64,000 nt of DNA, from the IMG/VR virus record IMGVR_UViG_2734482790_000004. One strand, written 5' to 3'. The stretch is from a virus (lineage: Duplodnaviria; Heunggongvirae; Uroviricota; Caudoviricetes). The notes under the pieces were generated by a model. The model was not told the origin of the DNA, ran no database searches, and saw only the letters and a list, made by a program, of their open reading frames with translations. The translations under genes and the position numbers were made by a program. Numbering within the stretch: the first letter of the stretch is position 1; every line of letters starts with the position of its first letter. Of the stretch, positions 3,201 through 27,672 are shown piece after piece.

Positions 3201-6200
3201 ACAATACGCCCGCATTCCGCTACGTGATGACACCGTAGATGAGCATGCACAGGATATGCTTTATGACTTCGTTGCCGCCGGACGCGTAGCCAGCGCAATG
3301 GACTCCGACTCCCACCGCAAAGAGGCCGCGCGTCGCCGGGTATTGTCGGAGTATTCAGATACCGGCACCGAAAAAGCAGAGAAGTATCCGTACTTTGAGG
3401 ATATGGGCTTCGATAGTGTGATCGCCGACGAAGGCCACAACTACCGCAATAGCTATAAAAATGGTCGCGAAGCGTCACAGCTAGCCTATCTGCCCACCAG
3501 CGCGGTAGCGCAATCGGCGCGAGATATGGCAATTAAAAACGCGTACCTGATGAAAAAGAATGGTGGGCGCGGGCCGGTTCTCCTGACTGCAACGCCAGTC
3601 GTTAACACCCCGATCGATGCATACAACATGCTTTCTCATGTTCTGCCGAAGGAATACTGGCAGAACATGGGGATCTACGGTCCTGATGACTTCGTTAAAT
3701 TCTTCGGCAAGACCAGGCTGGAAACGGTACAGAAAATTAGCGGTGAAGTTGAAGAAAAAATGGCGCTGGTGGGCTTTGAAAACCTTGATGCGCTGCGCGG
3801 TATATTCCATCGCTGGGTAACGCTTAAAACGGCGGAAGACGTTAAGGATACCGTGGAGATCCCGGAGCTGGACGAACACCAGCAGGATGCACCACTTACT
3901 GAAGAACAACTGGCGGCGTATGAAGAATTGCGTCAGCAGGCGGAAGCGGCGGCCAAAGCCAACAATGGCGTAACGACCTCGGTCAATGAAGACGGCGTGA
4001 TTGAGCACGAGAAAGCCCGTCCGATCTTCTCAATAATCAGGGATATGGACCGCGTATGTACTGACATGGACCTGTACTATCGCCGGATCACCTATCGTTT
4101 CCTGCCGGAGTACGCCGATGCGGTGCAGCAGCTGGCGGACAGTTTGCCTAAACAAGCCACCAGCGAAGACGACGACAGTGATGATTCAATCACGCAGCAA
4201 TCGCAATACTCCCTGATAGATAAGGGCGAGTTTATTCAGTTGCAGGTTCCGGAAGCGTTCGAGCAGGAAGTGAATAAGCGCCTGGCCAGGTTTGGCATTG
4301 ACGAACAGACCGTAACTCACCCCGTTACGCCCAAATACGCGAAGCTGATTGCCACGCTGAAGGAGTTTTTCCCGGAAGGTAAGCAAATCATCTTCACCGA
4401 TGAAAAAACGCAGCACCAGAAGCTCAAGCGCATTATCTGCAATGCTCTTAACCTTGAACCTTCAAAGGTGGGGATACTGAATGCTCAGACGGTTGCCGAG
4501 GCAGGTAAAACCGGTAAGAAACTGAAAGCGGTTAAACCGCCGAAAGAGTTACCGGATGAACCAACAGATGCACAGATAGCGAAATACAACGAGCAAATGG
4601 CTCTGTATGACGCCTATATCGCGCAGCAAAATGAAATGTCGTTGGGCGGTCTGGAAAAGATTGCAGCCGACTTCCAGGAGGGCCGGACTCCGATCATCAT
4701 CTGCAACAAAAAGGCAGAAGTGGGTATCAACCTGCATCGAGGAACGACTGACATCCATCATCTGACGTTGCCATGGACTCCAGCCAGTATTGCGCAACGA
4801 AACGGTCGCGGTGCCCGAGTTGGCTCCAACCGTGCAAGCGTTCGCGTTCACTACTACTGCGGCAAGGGGTCTTTCGATGAATACCGACTGAAGACGCTGA
4901 AGCGTAAAGCAGGCTGGATCTCCGATATCCTCCGTTCAGATAAGTCAGAAATGGAGAACGCCGACGCCAACGATATGATCGAAATGCAGATGTATACCGC
5001 GAAGGATGACGGCGAACGTCTGGCAATGATGCAGGTTCAAATGGATAAGGCGAAAGCTGCGAAACGCGCTCGCCAGAAAGAACAGGCTACTATCGACCTT
5101 CAGAACTACATCAAGGCGCAGCACGCAGCTGGTGAGGATGTGGAGGTACTTACCGCTGAATTGGAGCGAAGCAAAGCGGAACTTGAAAAGACCACCGCCG
5201 ACGTCGCCAAATTCAAACAGGCGGTAATGGCCAAAGCAGCTGATAACGCAGACTGGAAAGCCCGCTGGGGTAGCGTCCATCACACAGACCGTATGTTGTT
5301 AGCACAGTATCGCGCGTCGTTGAAAAGCGCCATTCAGCGCAAGGCTAATATCTCTCAGGCCATCTCCCGCTATGAGAAATTATTGAACCGTACTCAGAAG
5401 GCCGCGACGGATATCAAACGCCTGCGCCCGCTGGTGGAGGATGCAATAAATAAAGGCATTCTGGATGTTGATCCTGATCTGGTTAACCATGCGAATGAGT
5501 TCCTTGTTATCGGCGATCGCTCATGGCGTGTAGGCCAATACTATGATTGTGCCGGTGATATCGTTCGCATTAAGTCGCTGGACTTCGACAGCCAGCGCGC
5601 AGACGTGGAGATCATCTTTACCTTCAAAGGCACCAAATCGGGTAACTGGGATGTGAAGACGCTGGATAAACAGGTTGATGTAACTCCCGATGAAGATGCT
5701 GTTATGCAGAAAATCAGTGGTGGCGTCTCCATCGCCGGGATTAACGACATCGTTTCCTGTGACGATTTCTACCGTTTCCAGCAGCGCGGCATGATCAAAA
5801 TCACTGACTCATACGGCGTTCAGACTACAGAGTCAGGCTATAGCATTGATTTTGTTGGTACCTATACGGACCCACTGAAGCATGCGGTTTACCCGGATCG
5901 CCGTGACGGCGCGCTGAAGTCGTCAATTGCAAAATGGGTGCTTGGTATGATGTCGGAAGGGAATAACCGCCAGATCCGTTCGGCAGAAGCATTCCTGGTT
6001 GAACTGTTTGGCTCCAATTATGGCGATGTAATCGCGTCATACGGAGATACGCTATCCCCTGAAGCACTTCAGGAGAAAATAGCGGATGCGATCGCCAGAA
6101 TGCCGGAGAAAACAAGCCAGGGGGCTACTCGTAACGGGGATTCTGAACTTGAAGTCACCAATGCCATTTTCGGTACCAATGAGTTCCGGGCGTCAGATTA

Positions 6201-12692: not shown

Positions 12693-12709
12693 AGAATTAT
12701 TAGAGCAAT
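12693..12709 (-). promoter_or_regulatory. C1-operator-like 17-mer, 15/17
   Basis: AGAATTATTAGAGCAAT. Confidence 0.55.
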
Positions 12710-19417: not shown

Positions 19418-19563
19418 GATTATAAACTTCACAGGCATAAAGCACCAGCACTTTGCGGCTTAACAAACCTCTAGGCAGGTCATTCGTAGCCTAATGTCCG
19501 AACTGTTAAAGCATCCAAGTTGCTGTAGAATCACCGCCAATTACATAAGCCTGAAATAAGTGG

Positions 19564-21126
19564 ATGAAAATGACAAGTATTCAACAACGTGCAGAGCTTC
19601 ATCGTCAAATCTGGCAAATTGCTAACGATGTCAGGGGTTCGGTCGATGGATGGGATTTTAAGCAATACGTTCTGGGCGCACTTTTCTACCGTTTTATCAG
19701 CGAAAATTTTTCCAGCTATATTGAAGCCGGTGATGACAGCATCTGTTATGCGAAACTGGATGACAGCGTAATTACTGATGACATTAAAGACGATGCCATC
19801 AAAACCAAAGGCTACTTCATCTACCCAAGTCAGCTTTTCTGCAACGTAGCTGCGAAAGCAAATACCAATGACAGACTGAACGCAGATTTAAACAGCATCT
19901 TCGTTGCTATCGAAAGTTCTGCTTACGGTTATCCTTCAGAAGCAGACATCAAAGGTTTGTTTGCTGATTTCGATACCACCAGTAACCGCCTGGGTAACAC
20001 CGTTAAGGATAAAAATGCCCGCCTGGCCGCGGTTCTGAAAGGGGTTGAAGGGTTAAAGCTTGGCGACTTTAACGAACATCAGATTGACCTGTTCGGCGAT
20101 GCCTATGAGTTCCTGATTTCTAACTATGCCGCGAATGCCGGTAAGTCAGGCGGCGAGTTCTTTACACCGCAGCACGTCTCTAAGCTGATTGCACAACTGG
20201 CTATGCACGGGCAGACCCACGTTAACAAAATCTACGACCCGGCAGCAGGTTCCGGTTCTCTGTTATTGCAGGCTAAAAAGCAGTTTGATGACCACATCAT
20301 CGAAGAAGGTTTTTTTGGTCAGGAAATCAACCATACGACCTATAACCTGGCGCGTATGAACATGTTTTTGCACAACATCAACTACGACAAGTTTGATATC
20401 AAGCTGGGCAATACGCTGACTGAGCCGCACTTCAGAGATGAAAAACCGTTTGATGCCATCGTTTCTAACCCGCCGTATTCGGTGAAATGGATTGGCAGCG
20501 ATGACCCGACGCTGATTAACGATGAGCGTTTTGCCCCGGCTGGCGTTCTGGCCCCCAAATCCAAAGCTGACTTTGCGTTTGTATTACATGCGCTGAACTA
20601 TCTTTCGGCCAAAGGTCGTGCTGCGATTGTCTGCTTCCCGGGTATTTTTTACCGTGGCGGCGCAGAGCAGAAAATCCGTCAGTATCTGGTCGATAATAAC
20701 TATGTCGAAACCGTAATTTCACTGGCTCCGAACCTGTTCTTTGGCACCACCATTGCCGTAAACATTCTGGTTCTGTCCAAACATAAAACGGATACCAACG
20801 TTCAGTTTATTGATGCCAGCGAACTGTTCAAAAAAGAGACCAACAACAATATCCTGACCGATGCCCATATCGAACAGATTATGCAGGTATTTGCCAGCAA
20901 GGAAGATGTTGCTCATCTGGCAAAATCTGTCGCGTTCGAAGCCGTTGTCGCGAATGACTATAACCTGTCGGTGAGCAGCTATGTGGAAGCGAAAGATAAC
21001 CGCGAAATTATCAATATTGCTGAACTGAATGCAGAGCTGAAAACCACGGTCAGCAAAATCGACCAGTTGCGTAAAGATATTGATGCAATTGTGGCTGAAA
21101 TTGAAGGCTGCGAGGTGCAGAAATGA
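19564..21126 (+). CDS. hsdM: Type I R-M methyltransferase subunit HsdM (EcoR124-like, family IC), 520 aa
   Basis: NPPY motif ([10 protein letters not shown]), AdoMet motif DPAAGSGS; near-identity to remembered EcoR124I HsdM. Confidence 0.9.
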
Positions 21127-22329
21127 GCGAGTTGAGTTATCTGGAAAAATTGATGGATGGGGTTGAGGTTGAGTGGTTGCCACTCTCAAAAGTATTCAAC
21201 TTAAGGAATGGTTATACACCGTCTAAAACTAAAAAAGAATTTTGGGCGAATGGTGATATACCTTGGTTCAGAATGGATGACATACGTGAAAATGGTAGAA
21301 TTCTAGGGAATTCACTTCAAAAAAATTTCATCCTGCGCCGTAAAAGGGGGGAAACTATTTCCTGAAAATTCAATATTAATATCAACGTCGGCAACAATTG
21401 GTGAGCATGCTTTAATCACTGTACCTCATCTAGCCAATCAAAGGTTTACATGTTTGGCTTTAAAAGAGTCTTATGCTGATTGCTTTGATATTAAATTTTT
21501 ATTTTACTACTGTTTTTCTTTAGCTGAGTGGTGCCGAAAAAACACAACGATGTCCAGTTTTGCGTCTGTTGATATGGATGGATTCAAAAAATTTTTAATC
21601 CCTCGCCCCTGCCCGGATAATCCGGAAAAATCCCTTGCCATCCAGTCTGAAATCGTTCGGATTCTGGATAAGTTTACTGCACTTACCGCTGAGCTTACCG
21701 CTGAGCTTAATATGCGTAAAAAACAGTACAACTACTATCGCGACCAGTTGTTGAGTTTTAAAGAGGGTGAGGTTGAGTGGAAGACTTTGGGAACATTTGC
21801 AGATAATTTTGATTCTCTTAGAAAACCAATAACTAGTGGATTAAGGGAGACTGGAAATATTCCCTATTATGGTGCGTCAGGCATTGTTGATTACGTAAAA
21901 GATTATATTTTTGATGATGACCTGTTATTAATTTCTGAAGATGGTGCGAATCTTATTGCAAGAAATACCCCTATAGCTTTTAGCATTAGCGGTAAAACGT
22001 GGGTGAATAATCATGCTCATGTACTTAAATTCAAAAACTACACTGAACAAAAATTTGTTGAATATTACTTAAACAATATCAATCTTACGCCGTACATATC
22101 AGGAGCAGCCCAGCCAAAGCTAAATAAGAAAAACTTAGAAAGTATCCGTATTCCTAATCCATCACTAAAAGAAAAAGAGCGGATTGTTACTATTCTGGAT
22201 AAATTCGACACCCTGACTAACTCCATCACCGAAGGTCTCCCGCGTGAAATCGAGTTACGCCAGAAACAATACGAGTACTATCGTGATTTACTGTTCAGTT
22301 TCCCAAAACCTGAAACAGTCAGTAATTAA
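21123..22329 (+). pseudogene. hsdS: Type IC specificity subunit HsdS, interrupted by +1 frameshift in G6 tract (21346-21351)
   Basis: Track ORFs 21123..21365 and 21454..22329 join into one HsdS when one G is removed; conserved central TAEL repeats and C-terminal region. Confidence 0.8.
21685..21708 (+). repeat. 2 x 12-bp direct repeat encoding TAEL-TAEL in HsdS central conserved region
   Basis: ACCGCTGAGCTT x2. Confidence 0.8.
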
Positions 22330-22450
22330 TTGACCATTGCTACCGACCGGGCCACCTTAACATCCGGTCTGTATATAGACTATTTTTTACACGCTGGAAG
22401 TCGCCCTTAAAGCTCTTCCGGCCCTTGCCAGACGGCACAAAGGATGCGCT

Positions 22451-25400
22451 ATGACTCATCAGACATACACCATTGCTGAATCCAATAACTTTATCGTTCT
22501 TGATAAGTACATCAAAGCTGAGCCAACAGGCGACAGCTACCAGAGCGAATCGGACCTGGAACGTGAACTGATTCAGGACCTGCAAAATCAGGGCTATGAA
22601 TTTATACCCGTAAAATCACAGTCAGCGATGCTGGCCAACGTTCGGGAACAGCTTCAGAGCCTCAATGGTGTGATGTTTAATGACAGCGAGTGGCGGCGCT
22701 TCACGGAGCAGTATCTGGACAACCCCAGCGATGGTATTCTGGATAAAATCCGTAAAATCCATATCGACTATATTTGCGACTTTATTTTTGATGACGAGCG
22801 TCTTGAGAACATCTATCTGATAGATAAAAAGAATCTCATGCGCAATAAGGTGCAGATTATCCAGCAGTTTGAACAGGCAGGTTCTCACGCTAACCGTTAT
22901 GACGTAACTATCCTGGTTAATGGCTTGCCACTGGTGCAAATCGAACTGAAAAAGCGCGGCGTGGCGATTCGTGAGGCTTTCAACCAGATACATCGTTACA
23001 GTAAAGAGAGTTTTAACAGCGAAAACTCCCTGTTTAAGTATCTGCAACTGTTTGTCATTTCTAACGGCACCGATACCCGTTATTTTGCCAACACAACAAA
23101 GCGCGATAAAAACAGTTTTGACTTCACCATGAACTGGGCGAAATCAGACAATACACTGATTAAAGACCTCAAAGACTTTACCGCTACCTTTTTCCAGAAA
23201 CATACTCTGCTTAATGTTCTGGTGAACTACAGCGTTTTTGACAGTAGTCAGACGCTACTGGTGATGCGACCGTACCAGATTGCCGCCACCGAACGAATCT
23301 TATGGAAAATCAACAGCTCCTATAAAGCGAAAAACTGGTCTACCCCCGAAAGCGGTGGCTTTATCTGGCACACCACCGGTTCTGGTAAAACCCTCACCAG
23401 CTTTAAAGCCGCGCGGCTGGCAACAGAACTGGACTTTATTGATAAAGTCTTCTTCGTGGTCGACAGGAAAGACCTCGATTACCAGACTATGAAGGAATAT
23501 CAGCGTTTTTCGCCAGATAGTGTTAACGGCTCGGAAAATACCGCAGGTCTAAAACGAAATCTGGATAAGGACGATAACAAAATTATCGTCACCACTATTC
23601 AGAAACTTAATAACCTGATGAAAGCAGAAAGCGACCTGCCTGTATACAATCAGCAAGTGGTGTTTATATTTGATGAATGCCACCGCAGCCAGTTTGGAGA
23701 AGCGCAGAAAAACCTGAAGAAGAAATTCAAACGCTATTATCAGTTTGGTTTTACCGGCACTCCTATTTTCCCGGAAAACGCTTTAGGTTCAGAAACGACC
23801 GCCAGCGTATTTGGTCGTGAATTGCATTCGTATGTAATTACCGATGCGATTCGAGATGAAAAAGTGCTTAAATTCAAGGTGGACTACAACGATGTGCGGC
23901 CACAGTTTAAGTCTTTAGAGACAGAAACTGACGAGAAAAAACTAAGTGCGGCTGAAAATCAGCAGGCGTTTCTTCATCCCATGCGTATTCAGGAAATCAC
24001 GCAATATATTCTGAATAATTTCCGCCAGAAAACTCACCGTACCTTCCCTGGCTCAAAAGGTTTTAATGCTATGTTGGCAGTGAGCAGCGTGGATGCCGCG
24101 AAAGCCTATTATGCGACGTTTAAACGGTTACAAGAAGAAGCCGCTAATAAATCGGCTACCTATAAACCGCTGCGTATTGCGACAATCTTCTCCTTTGCCG
24201 CCAATGAAGAACAAAATGCCATTGGTGAAATTTCCGATGAAACTTTTGATACCAGCGCAATGGACAGCAGTGCTAAAGAGTTTCTGGACGCTGCAATTCG
24301 TGAATATAACAGCCATTTTAAAACTAACTTTAGCACCGACAGTAACGGTTTTCAGAACTACTATCGTGATTTAGCCCAGCGGGTTAAAAATCAGGATATC
24401 GATCTGCTAATTGTCGTGGGGATGTTTTTAACCGGCTTCGATGCTCCAACATTGAACACGCTATTCGTCGATAAAAACTTGCGTTTTCACGGCCTGATGC
24501 AGGCATTTTCCCGCACCAACCGTATTTATGATGCAACTAAAACCTTCGGTAATATCGTCACTTTCCGGGATCTGGAACGCTCAACTATTGATGCCATAAC
24601 GCTGTTTGGTGACAAAAACACCAAAAATGTGGTGTTAGAAAAGAGTTATACAGAGTATATGGAAGGCTTTACTGATGCTACTACTGGTGAAGCTAAACGC
24701 GGCTTCATGACAGTAGTTTCAGAACTGGAACAACGGTTCCCTGACCCTACCAGTATTGAAAGTGAAAAAGAGAAGAAAGACTTCGTTAAACTGTTTGGCG
24801 AATACCTGCGTGCCGAGAACATCCTGCAAAACTATGATGAATTTGCCACGCTAAAAGCCCTGCAACAAATCGATCTTAGCGATCCTGTTGCGGTAGAAAA
24901 ATTCAAAGCAGAACATTATGTGGATGATGAAAAGTTCGCTGAATTGCAAACAATTCGTCTCCCTGCTGATCGCAAGATTCAGGATTATCGTTCTGCCTAT
25001 AACGATATTCGCGACTGGCAGCGCCGTGAGAAAGAAGCTGAGAAAAAAGAGAAATCAACCACTGACTGGGATGACGTAGTTTTTGAGGTCGATTTGCTGA
25101 AGTCTCAGGAAATAAACCTGGATTATATCCTTGGACTGATTTTCGAACACAACAGACAAAATAAAGGCAAGGGCGAAATGATCGAAGAGGTCAAACGCTT
25201 AATTCGTTCAAGCCTAGGGAACCGTGCTAAAGAGGGCCTGGTGGTCGATTTTATTCAGCAAACGAACCTGGATGATTTACCAGACAAAGCCAGTATCATT
25301 GAGGCATTCTTTACGTTTGCTCAACGCGAACAGCAACGTGAAGCAGAAGCATTGATAAAAGAAGAAAATCTCAATGAAGAGGCAGCAAAACGCTATATTC

Positions 25401-25567
25401 GCACGTCTTTAAAACGCGAATACGCCACCGAAAATGGCACAGAATTAAACGAAACATTACCAAAACTTAGTCCGTTGAATCCGCAATATAAAACGAAAAA
25501 ACAGGCAGTTTTCCAGAAAATCGTCTCGTTTATTGAGAAGTTTAAAGGCGTAGGCGGAAAAATATAG
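22451..25567 (+). CDS. hsdR: Type I restriction endonuclease subunit HsdR (EcoR124-like), 1038 aa
   Basis: 1038 aa; helicase motifs GSGKT, DECHRS; follows hsdM-hsdS. Confidence 0.9.
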
Positions 25568-25645
25568 CCCAATTCGTGTTTTTCTTGCGGGTTCTTAATT
25601 AAACCCGCATGATACCATGGGGTTCCAAATGGCTAATATACTCCC

Positions 25646-25732
25646 TTACCCATGCGCGACGATGCCGCCAAAAGTGATAGAGAACAGCCAGAAATAGATC
25701 GCGGCCATAATGATTTTGAATGCCGTGTTCAT
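25646..25732 (-). CDS. 28-aa hydrophobic peptide MNTAFKIIMAAIYFWLFSITFGGIVAHG (candidate membrane toxin/kil peptide)
   Basis: AGGAG SD 7 nt before ATG; downstream of operator-like site and hairpin; below ORF-track size cut-off. Confidence 0.3.
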   Translation of the reverse strand: MNTAFKIIMAAIYFWLFSITFGGIVAHG

Positions 25733-25760
25733 ATTTTCAGCTCCTGTGATTGATTGGATA

Positions 25761-25790
25761 CATGCCGCGCCTTGCGGCATGTTTTTATTT
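25761..25790 (+). terminator. Rho-independent terminator-like hairpin (8-bp stem CATGCCGC/GCGGCATG) plus T-run
   Basis: Stem-loop followed by TTTTTATTTT on plus strand, about 200 bp after hsdR. Confidence 0.45.
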
Positions 25791-25814
25791 TCACTTTCTC
25801 TGTTTTAAAAATCA

Positions 25815-25831
25815 AGATTTATTAGAGCAAT
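25815..25831 (-). promoter_or_regulatory. C1-operator-like 17-mer, 16/17
   Basis: AGATTTATTAGAGCAAT abutting the stop of the HAD-like gene. Confidence 0.6.
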
Positions 25832-26337
25832 TATTGTTGATGAAGAAGCGCATTTTCATATTCCCTGACCATTAACGTAAGTACGCCGTGACTCCTGAAA
25901 ACACGCGCCACTTCAATCTTATCTTCCAGCGCGAACGCAATTTTACTTAGACCAATTTTCTTCAGGAGATCAATCTTTGCAGGGCCGTCATTTCTGTCAT
26001 CGGTGGCAGGACGCATAGATAGCAAAGGCTCAGCCCCATTTGTTACGTGCTTACGCAACCAAGCTCGTGTTTTATCCCTGGCTATCTCACAGCGCCCGGT
26101 TACAAACCAGAGAGTGTAAATGCTGGACAACTGGCGCACCATATCAATAACTGGAGTGATGGGAGCATCAGTGTCACAGGCAAGGTTAAACTCGTTCCAG
26201 TGCTCTGTTAATGCACCTTTGCCAGGTGGTGGAAGTAAATGCAGCCTGTCTTCCGTTGCCTCTGATATTGTTCCATCAATATCAACTATGACGATATACG
26301 GACGTTCCTGGTGTGCGTGTTTATTGAAAATACTCAA
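25831..26337 (-). CDS. HAD-superfamily phosphatase-like protein, 168 aa
   Basis: DxDGT motif (IVDIDGTIS) near N-terminus. Confidence 0.45.
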   Translation of the reverse strand: MSIFNKHAHQERPYIVIVDIDGTISEATEDRLHLLPPPGKGALTEHWNEFNLACDTDAPITPVIDMVRQLSSIYTLWFVTGRCEIARDKTRAWLRKHVTNGAEPLLSMRPATDDRNDGPAKIDLLKKIGLSKIAFALEDKIEVARVFRSHGVLTLMVREYENALLHQQ

Positions 26338-26409: not shown

Positions 26410-27672
26410 TCAGCGAACGTAAATAGTGCCGCCGTTCTCTTTTTCCCATGCATCGCTACGTGCATAGCAAACATCGAGAAGTCTTCTTGCCGCTGTTTCC
26501 TCTAAACCCAATTCGACAACCAACTGCTCATGACGGCGGGTAACCACATCAAACAACGTATGCAGCCCTTTAGTTGCCAGTTCATCAATGAATTCCGGTT
26601 CGAACGGTAGCTCTGCATCTGCCAACATAACCTCTTGCGCCCACTCGACACGGCGGACCAGTTCCGGGCGGCGGCTTTCCATCTCTTTACAGATCAATTC
26701 ATGGAAGAACTCTACCCAACCTTCCGGCTGGAACTCGCGGAAAATGGCCAACGGCTGGAAGTTTGGCATCAACCATTCGTTGATACGGATATCAATGGCA
26801 TAGCCCATGTCGCAGCAGAACTGATAAGCAAAGTCCAGCTTAGAAACGATATAAGGACGCTCGTTATTGAACTCTTTAGGCGATGAGATCCCATAAGCCA
26901 GGAGGCGCGGGAAGAATGAGATTTGCCCTAACGTCGGATGAAGTTTGCTTGCAGGGAAACGGCGCTCAGTAATGCCATACATTTCCTTCTTGAGCGTCGC
27001 AAATTTGGCATTCTCATTAACCAGCGCGGTAACCTCTGCTTTTTTATTAGCAAATGCCACGCGCGCTTCGCTTGCATCTTTAATAGTTTTTTTGAGCTGT
27101 TGGTTAAGGTCGGCGACCTGTTTACGCAGTTCCTGCCGCTCGCTTTTAGCTTTGTTATAGCGTTTCTCAAGGTTAAAAGGATCAAGTTTCATGATCTCTT
27201 TATATTGAGATTTTAGCGTTGAAATCTGTGAGTTCCGCAGTTCAACCATCGCGGTCATTTCATTGAGTTTTGTTTCCAGCTCAATGCTTATACGTTCGGC
27301 ATTATCAGCACGCTGGTTGGCGTCATGCGTCGCATCGTCGATCGCATCCTGTTGCTGGCGTTTCAAATGTTCAATTTGCAGCTGAAGCTCTTCAATTTCT
27401 TTACCCTTCAGACCGAGATCCAACTGCATATTTTCAGCTGCATCTACCAGGGAGTTATGGCTATCAGCTTCTGCGTTATAAACATCAATAAGCTGTGCGT
27501 GAAGCATCTCCGCTGACTGAACCGCATTATCAAAAAAACGTGCTGTGAGGTCATCACAACTAACGCGGCGTTGCGCGGCCCGGATGTTCTGGATAATGGC
27601 CGGGATACCGGCATTCAGGACATCAGGGATAGATACATTTTCGATTGATTGGTTTTGTGCTGAAGTGCTCAT
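26410..27672 (-). CDS. 420-aa protein with long N-terminal coiled coil and unassigned C-terminal domain
   Basis: Heptad-rich, charged N-half; no recognised motif. Confidence 0.4.
   Translation of the reverse strand: MSTSAQNQSIENVSIPDVLNAGIPAIIQNIRAAQRRVSCDDLTARFFDNAVQSAEMLHAQLIDVYNAEADSHNSLVDAAENMQLDLGLKGKEIEELQLQIEHLKRQQQDAIDDATHDANQRADNAERISIELETKLNEMTAMVELRNSQISTLKSQYKEIMKLDPFNLEKRYNKAKSERQELRKQVADLNQQLKKTIKDASEARVAFANKKAEVTALVNENAKFATLKKEMYGITERRFPASKLHPTLGQISFFPRLLAYGISSPKEFNNERPYIVSKLDFAYQFCCDMGYAIDIRINEWLMPNFQPLAIFREFQPEGWVEFFHELICKEMESRRPELVRRVEWAQEVMLADAELPFEPEFIDELATKGLHTLFDVVTRRHEQLVVELGLEETAARRLLDVCYARSDAWEKENGGTIYVR

Follow-up and report, generated by a model that had tools for sequence, protein, structure and literature searches.

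The 64,000-nucleotide (nt) stretch of the IMG/VR virus record IMGVR_UViG_2734482790_000004, referred to below as the window, belongs to a P1-like phage-plasmid. Directly after the pap gene its minus strand, which corresponds to the P1 orientation, carries an operator-like site, a hairpin and a 28-codon open reading frame (ORF) for a hydrophobic peptide, facing a restriction gene (hsdR) that converges on it from the other side. No further gene follows the small ORF under the same operator. On balance, the unit probably comprises the control region of the C1-repressed P1 early operon Op88 (OpmgT, "hea") together with its first small cistron, orphaned in this element.

The Op88 Unit Downstream of pap

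The following features make up the unit:

25815-25831 (read from 25831 to 25815), minus strand: C1 operator ATTGCTCTAATAAATCT, identical to the Op88/OpmgT protein_bind feature of AF234172
25802-25830, minus strand: predicted sigma-70 promoter P2pmgT, base for base as annotated in AF234172
25787-25815, minus strand: second predicted promoter, P1pmgT, mapped onto the window from the P1 annotation
25760-25792 (stem-loop 25760-25782), plus strand: GC-rich hairpin with a T-run, found by terminator scan
25741-25745, minus strand: Shine-Dalgarno (SD) sequence AGGAG, 8 nt before the ATG and conserved in all recovered loci
25646-25732 (ATG at 25732, TAA at 25648-25646), minus strand: 28-codon ORF plus TAA with the product MNTAFKIIMAAIYFWLFSITFGGIVAHG, read from the sequence

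The operator ATTGCTCTAATAAATCT is a 17-bp asymmetric site that matches the C1 consensus ATTGCTCTAATAAATTT at 16 of 17 positions, and the pap stop codon ends on the first A of the site. AF234172 labels it a monovalent C1-controlled operator, OpmgT, formerly Op88; its name in P7 is Op(hea). Allowing up to three mismatches to the consensus, 17 sites are present in the 64-kb window against 0.32 expected, which fits the many C1-controlled operons of P1. The operator-like sites are partly paired, for example at 12693/12776, 27907/27956 and 33344/33355.

The operator overlaps the -35 element of P2pmgT (TTGCTC, 25830-25825), which is separated by a 17-nt spacer from the -10 hexamer TAAAAC (25807-25802). 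Such an overlap would allow C1 to block the promoter, itself an annotated prediction rather than a mapped start. A generic promoter scan gave no score to P2pmgT. P1pmgT comprises TTGATT (25815-25810) and GAAAAT (25792-25787); its -10 element falls in the A-tract opposite the T-run of the hairpin, so that one stretch serves both as T-run and as -10 region of this promoter. Operator and P2pmgT are already known, being annotated in AF234172, and the identity with that entry makes the site a true C1 operator, P1 Op88, overlapped by a predicted promoter.

The hairpin consists of the stem CATGCCGC/GCGGCATG (25781-25774 and 25768-25761) and the loop AAGGC, and can be extended to 9-10 pairs over 25782-25760. 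Judged by the annotated -10 boxes, transcripts of Op88 would start at the base of the stem or some 15 nt before it, and would thus bear the hairpin as a stem-loop at their 5' end or adjacent to it, where it might have a stabilising role.

The product of the ORF contains one predicted transmembrane helix, with a grand average of hydropathy (GRAVY) of 1.30 and 2.1 for the best 19-residue window. Six-frame reading of the window yields 544 ATG-started ORFs of 20-45 amino acids, ten of which have a GRAVY of at least 1.30 and three a 5-mer SD; the 28-codon ORF alone combines both properties. The individual elements had been read correctly, and with the right coordinates, by the first-pass annotation, which described a 16/17 C1-operator-like site containing TTGCTC, a TAAAAC -10-like hexamer, an 8-bp GC hairpin, and AGGAG followed by the ATG of a peptide almost entirely made of one transmembrane helix. 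What it missed is that these elements are the stranded head of the pmgT operon and that the stop codon of the ORF is a mosaic junction.

The 28-residue peptide is identical in P1, P7, SJ46 and RCS47. Up to the stop codon of the ORF, the sequence shares 96-99% identity with phages P1, P7, SJ46, RCS47 and JL22 and with about 870-1000 plasmids, mostly of E. coli. P1 ranks with the most thoroughly studied phages, and roughly one complete E. coli genome in ten harbours a P1-like phage-plasmid; of 5426 such genomes, 564 have the Op88 unit. The position of the unit is syntenic, directly after pmgS-pap in the punavirus backbone:

26410-27672, minus strand: pmgS, upstream of pap in the P1 gene order
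25831-26337, minus strand: pap, a 168-codon ORF for a 3'-phosphatase/polynucleotide kinase-like protein (PF25109 HAD_PNKP)

Homologues of Pap in other phages are at most 41% identical and stand in unrelated contexts.

GenBank records of SJ46, JL22 and phi456 contain a 44-residue version of the ORF (25646-25780), named "membrane protein" or "hypothetical protein". This longer start (ATG at 25780) is regarded as wrong, since its ATG sits in the hairpin stem and has no SD, and population variants disrupt its frame: a common CCG to TAA change at its third codon breaks the reading and a 2-nt insertion in the loop shifts it, while the 28-codon frame is affected by neither. Literature searches on Op88 and pmgT returned nothing about the ORF, and the peptide sequence was not found in the papers searched. 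As its SD, hydrophobicity and conservation suggest, the ORF is probably a small gene of the P1 early operon that encodes a membrane protein and has escaped annotation.

On the plus strand, a hydrophobic 32-residue ORF without SD (MILNAVFIFSAPVIDWIHAAPCGMFLFSLSLF, 25710-25808) runs antisense to the leader and the 28-codon ORF, and probably reflects the hydrophobic codons of the other strand.

The Stop Codon as a Module Junction

In P1 the ORF is identical and ends in TAAGGGGGATGCATG, the ATG of which is the pmgT start. Read as CATGGGTAAGGGGGATGCATGAAAGGC, its TAA lies inside the pmgT SD, 8 nt before the pmgT ATG, and with this arrangement the ORF opens the pmgT-pmgU-pmgV operon as its first cistron. 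No pmgT start follows in the window. The homology to P1 stops at 25643 and resumes at about 19469, just before phd/doc, and the intervening segment is occupied by a type IC restriction-modification cassette:

25640-25648, minus strand: mosaic junction between the end of P1 homology and the start of the hsd module; the megablast match to P1 ends at 25643
19469-25645, plus strand: EcoR124-type (type IC) hsdM-hsdS-hsdR cassette, inverted relative to the P1 backbone, identified by Pfam HsdM and HsdS and by the HsdR match
19564-21126, plus strand: hsdM, from Pfam
about 21454-22329, plus strand: hsdS, from Pfam
22451-25567, plus strand: hsdR, matching EcoR124I HsdR (PDB 2w00) with 2278 bits over all 1038 residues
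18789-19166, minus strand: Doc, from Pfam

The cassette takes the place of pmgT-pmgU-pmgV-upfMNO-hot-lxr-humD between the small ORF and phd/doc. It thus replaced the genes once led by the Op88 unit and left it stranded, with the small ORF as the only remaining cistron under Op88, converging with hsdR. A restriction-modification system of type I that substitutes for pmg genes has been described for pSvP1, in the variable region RD-5 "between pap and lxr" (PMC6906374), and the same hot-spot is variable region 8/H of P1-like plasmids (PMC9603915). The replacement fits the finding that pmgT, pmgU, pmgV and pap are non-essential for P1 (PMC10695390).

Among related loci at least four different continuations were found after CATGGGTA:

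Continuation 1: AGGGGGATGC followed by ATG, leading to pmgT or the P7-type allele
Continuation 2: AGGGGAGTATATTAGCC, leading to the 3' flank of hsd
Continuation 3: TTCGAGTTTC, leading to a module of Ead/Ea22, DUF4752 and DUF551; the TAA becomes TAT and the peptide gains 10 residues
Continuation 4: CTGGGTTGTC (TAC), an in-frame fusion to a DUF551 fragment

In the elements with TAT or TAC the peptide reads on into varied cargo for 9-37 additional residues, and this cargo is a lambdoid-style block. All junctions to unrelated modules lie within about 6 nt of the last sense codon. Such a pattern is expected where true genes meet in a mosaic phage genome, yet it would also fit a conserved homology arm, and it is therefore supportive of a gene rather than decisive. 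The stop codon of the ORF marks the exact left border of a cargo hot-spot at which restriction systems and accessory genes are exchanged.

Conservation and Selection

The unit was compared in 136 loci collected without the ORF as bait. The first set was anchored on Pap and drawn from IMG/VR and genomes; the second came from metagenomes and was anchored on a 21-base exact match that covers the SD and spacer immediately before the ATG. Of the 136 loci, 134 have the 28-codon frame intact; the first-pass annotation had counted a frame not conserved in related elements among the signs against its reading. The other two are cut after codon 19 by foreign DNA, and neither a frameshift nor a nonsense change occurs in the ORF among the 136. 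The SD, at functional spacing, and the open frame are kept in relatives, as expected of a coding gene. Nucleotide diversity is at its minimum from the hairpin to the end of the ORF (0.003-0.014), compared with 0.02-0.10 in pap and 0.14-0.29 in pmgT.

Polymorphism in the ORF was compared with that of pap, used as an internal clock. Where pmgT follows, the canonical peptide is encoded by 85 of 88 loci, but where hsd follows, by only 19 of 47, the copy in the window being one of the canonical kind. Diversity at codon positions 1, 2 and 3 of the ORF is 0.0009, 0.0009 and 0.0234 in pmgT-type loci (77 loci) and 0.042, 0.015 and 0.031 in hsd-type loci (41 loci). Recurrent variants at positions 1 and 2 versus position 3 number 0 versus 3 in the former class and 6 versus 3 in the latter, where the recurrent replacements are N2S, A10T, S18F, G22D, G23S and G28R. 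The clock itself ran at an equal rate in both, with a third-position diversity in pap of 0.106 (pmgT-type) and 0.102 (hsd-type), and recurrent variants of pap at positions 1 and 2 versus 3 gave an odds ratio (OR) of 1.0. Measured against pap third positions, the replacement variants of the ORF differ between the two classes (Fisher p = 0.009), and so do the variants of the promoter-leader-ORF unit as a whole (all variants, OR 0.31, p = 0.0002; recurrent variants, OR 0.43, p = 0.05). The contrast is suggestive, although no proof, of purifying selection on the peptide where it heads a co-directional operon and of drift once the hsd cassette has replaced the operon.

Several observations weigh against reading the ORF as a selected gene of an early operon. 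The signal of constraint in pmgT-type loci rests on few variant sites in related sequences, the counts of which are not independent. In the pooled loci, 6 silent and 12 replacement variants were counted, close to the 6.8 and 10.5 (with 0.7 stops) expected neutrally from the observed mutation spectrum, and their distribution over codon positions is 5/7/6, compared with 28/14/76 in pap. Variation at silent sites of the ORF is also below that at pap third positions, so a constraint on the RNA or DNA itself, or a recent sweep of this segment, may contribute. The ORF is absent from the curated annotations of P1 and P7, and the Prokaryotic Genome Annotation Pipeline (PGAP) does not call it in a plasmid that is 100% identical over the 201 compared bases. 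The promoter is a prediction of the P1 annotation and was not mapped, and P1 retains the plus-strand terminator at the hairpin though no gene converges there. The peptide has no homologue outside punaviruses in the protein and phage searches described below, and the homologues of PmgT in prophages of Klebsiella, Edwardsiella and Pantoea are preceded by soluble proteins of 73-146 residues with a 4-nt overlap, never by a hydrophobic micro-ORF.

Part of this evidence would be accommodated if the approximately 150 nt acted as RNA or DNA, as a non-coding leader or module-boundary element in which the open frame is fortuitous. The segment could then serve as a 5' untranslated region (UTR) with a stabilising stem-loop, as a terminator insulating pap and pmgS from leftward transcription out of inverted cargo, and as a homology arm for the exchange of cargo modules. 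The absence of codon structure in the pooled variants, the non-coding stretch from hairpin to ATG being as strongly conserved as the ORF, the lack of annotation in P1, P7 and PGAP output, the location of the segment exactly at the edge of a known recombination hot-spot and its well-structured plus-strand fold (z = -3.7) are all consistent with such an element. It would, however, leave unexplained why variation in pmgT-type loci falls at third positions and why 85 of 88 peptides are identical there although silent polymorphism is common. It also sits poorly with the combination of a strong SD at ideal spacing and such hydrophobicity, which is unique among the 544 small ORFs, and with four module junctions that respect the last sense codon. 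No Rfam family was matched at threshold on either strand; the best hit was GcvB with 20.3 bits against a gathering score of 42 (E = 0.031). This weak match (25705-25788, plus strand) spans the terminator hairpin and a U-rich stretch and is taken as a terminator-driven chance match. A purely non-coding role is considered rather unlikely, though it is the likeliest of the alternatives.

Proposed Role in the Early Operon

In the account favoured here, that of an Op88 control region with its first cistron, C1 bound to the operator in a lysogen would cover the -35 hexamer and thereby keep the unit silent. Once repression by C1 is lifted, a transcript would start from P2pmgT, about 15 nt before the hairpin, or from P1pmgT at the hairpin base, and would carry the hairpin as a 5' stem-loop. 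The strong SD would then drive translation of the 28-residue peptide, which may insert into the membrane as a single-pass micro-protein. In P1 its gene would head the non-essential pmgT-U-V operon and would probably be translationally coupled to pmgT. In the window, the operator, promoter, hairpin and ORF would be left as a stub converging with hsdR, where the hairpin may terminate hsdR transcripts and the gene for the peptide seems to drift neutrally. The best guess for the function of the peptide is that of an accessory membrane factor acting with the pmgT-type module in early lytic development. In this hsd-type element the ORF is probably a relic, to judge from the variation among its relatives.

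The coupling geometry also invites the reading that the ORF is a regulatory upstream ORF (uORF), of which only the act of translation matters, either by delivering ribosomes to pmgT or by excluding Rho over the 180-nt leader. The position of the P1 stop within the pmgT SD, 8 nt before the ATG, the relaxation of constraint over the entire unit where co-directional genes are missing (the odds ratios given above) and the orphan status of the peptide would all suit this role. Pure coupling would nevertheless not constrain residues, whereas replacements in pmgT-type loci are strongly depleted relative to silent changes; moreover, next to other modules the frame runs on into the cargo (TAT/TAC), or the cargo starts about 30 nt later with no overlap. 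We consider a purely regulatory uORF improbable.

P1 pmgT (3365-4291 of the P1 locus extract) is listed in P1 with a "putative morphogenetic function". Its homologues, 60-73% identical, are found among the early-left genes of lambdoid prophages of Klebsiella, Edwardsiella and Pantoea, and some are named "ASCH domain-containing protein" by NCBI. Thousands of homologues occur in lambdoid prophages (Klebsiella, Citrobacter, Edwardsiella, Pantoea), near recombination genes, kil, xis and int. This context points to an early accessory rather than a morphogenetic function of PmgT. Domain searches with PmgT, PmgU and PmgV yielded only PHROGs of unknown function.

Homology Searches, Terminator and the Toxin Question

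The peptide has no match in Pfam and NCBIfam at E <= 10, and none in PHROG at the same threshold except phrog_27041 (E = 0.16). A word-indexed search of 5.8 billion protein clusters, an exhaustive HMMER search of 1.84 billion representatives and tblastn of phages each returned only punavirus copies at least 92% identical. As far as these searches reach, the peptide is a punavirus-restricted invention.

The first-pass annotation had compared the peptide in design to type I toxins and to phage kil or holin-like peptides, and had suggested that the hairpin might be a site of antisense or translational control. The resemblance in design stands, but positive evidence for a toxin was not obtained: the family and protein searches matched no known toxin family (Hok/Gef, Ldr, TisB, Ibs, ShoB, DinQ, ZorO). 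As for the hairpin, it is better read as a plus-strand terminator and a 5'-end stem-loop than as an antisense target. On the plus strand a stem of 10 pairs, 6 of them GC, is followed by TTTTTATTTT, and the terminator scan returned it as an intrinsic terminator. Between 18500 and 25900 no other plus-strand site resembles a terminator, which leaves it as the only one downstream of hsdMSR. Read along the minus strand, the stem runs into TATCCAATC, which lacks the features of a terminator for pap/Op88 transcripts. Among the 136 loci the stem is kept while the loop varies (AAGGC, AAGAC, AAGGGGC). Most likely, the hairpin is a plus-strand intrinsic terminator facing the convergent hsdR, which may use it. 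Since P1 has the terminator without a convergent gene, however, terminating hsdR is not its only reason to exist.

A further possibility is that the peptide is a C1-controlled membrane effector of P1-family phages, perhaps of kil type, acting at lytic onset on the host membrane or on cell division. In hsd elements the derepressed promoter would then run antisense into hsdR, and the hsdR 3' UTR would in turn silence the peptide in the lysogen. If true, shut-down of a type IC restriction subunit would be tied to prophage induction; we regard this as quite improbable.

A type I toxin-antitoxin-like or kil-like system in the stricter sense would require a membrane-damaging peptide held in check by an antisense RNA with its end at the opposite-strand terminator shortly before the SD, or in this window by the hsdR 3' UTR, with C1 adding transcriptional control. 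The small hydrophobic ORF agrees with this: at fewer than 30 residues, nearly all in one helix, it is designed like Ibs/Sib, ShoB/OhsC and TisB/IstR. The opposite strand has a canonical terminator 28 nt upstream of the ATG, and an hsdR transcript ending there would be fully complementary to the ORF and SD. In the minimum free energy fold of the predicted mRNA, codons 14-17 are also paired in part with the SD and AUG (z = -2.5). Of an antisense RNA gene, though, only the terminator is present. Scans revealed no plus-strand sigma-70-like promoter in the conserved segment or the hsd flank, and hexamer-by-hexamer reading of the plus strand over 25568-25760 gave at best 7 of 12 matches. P1-type elements lack a convergent gene from which an antisense RNA could come, and no Pfam, NCBIfam or PHROG family corresponds to the peptide. 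The promoter is controlled by a repressor rather than constitutive, and the peptide lacks the charged C-terminal tail common in such toxins. Replacements such as G22D and L16Q circulate, and the unit has been lost or truncated in IncF plasmids without consequence. The type I toxin reading is accordingly unsupported and very unlikely. A holin or lysis role, for which no evidence was found, is rejected; the lysis genes of P1 lie elsewhere on its map.

Relation to Known Systems

The closest known system is the Op88/OpmgT operon of P1 (Op(hea) in P7), which shares the operator, both predicted promoters, the hairpin, the SD, the ORF and the position after pap. Unlike the P1 operon, the window lacks pmgT to humD and has an inverted type IC hsd cassette instead, so that the unit leads nowhere. 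We see in it an interesting detail of a well-known phage and not a new kind of system. If an unannotated membrane-protein gene heads an early operon under repressor control, the list of P1 genes would grow modestly, and the ORF is a concrete candidate for small-protein work; in this window the unit is probably a leftover of limited functional consequence.

Enterobacterial type I toxins (Ibs/Sib, ShoB/OhsC, TisB/IstR-1, Ldr/Rdl, DinQ/AgrB, ZorO/OrzO, Hok/Sok) resemble the peptide in their length of 19-50 residues, mostly in one helix, and also in a structured leader and an opposite-strand terminator near the translation start. They differ in that no sequence relationship and no antisense promoter was found here and in that control is by a phage repressor. 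Small single-pass proteins of E. coli and its phages, such as KdpF, YohP, PmrR, MgtS and AcrZ, likewise have fewer than 50 residues, a single helix and no cleavable signal peptide, but the peptide has no homology to them and is restricted to punaviruses. Small single-pass membrane proteins are typically missed by annotation pipelines.

As a module linker of a mosaic phage, the ORF places its stop at the left edge of the pap-lxr/humD hot-spot with its interchangeable cargo (RD-5, region 8(H)). The studies that defined this region did so at the gene level, and neither the ORF nor the stop-codon junction is mentioned in them (PMC6906374; PMC9603915).

The HsdR of the window is near-identical to those of the EcoR124I/II and EcoDXXI hsd loci of plasmids R124 and pDXX1, and the P1 annotation notes 96-98% identity of the segment to sequence downstream of R124/3 and EcoDXXI hsdR. 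In IncF-type plasmids hsdMSR is followed by only nt 8-87 of the ORF, 98-99% identical and cut by the terminal repeat of IS1, whereas the window has the complete unit in a phage context. An example of this remnant is:

LC521844.1 (pC405_NDM5), locus 6001-6083: IncF remnant of the ORF

The arrangement occurs in about 280 plasmids of PLSDB and in about 320 of the 5426 complete E. coli genomes, and the remnant points to a P1-like element as the source of the EcoR124-family cassette of F-like plasmids. Another perfect hairpin of 8 bp, TGCGGGTT-CTTAATTA-AACCCGCA, is located at 25585-25610, 20 nt past the hsdR stop. With a T-run before it and none after, it does not have the form of a canonical terminator in either direction; it is part of the 3' flank of the hsd module and is conserved in the IncF copies.

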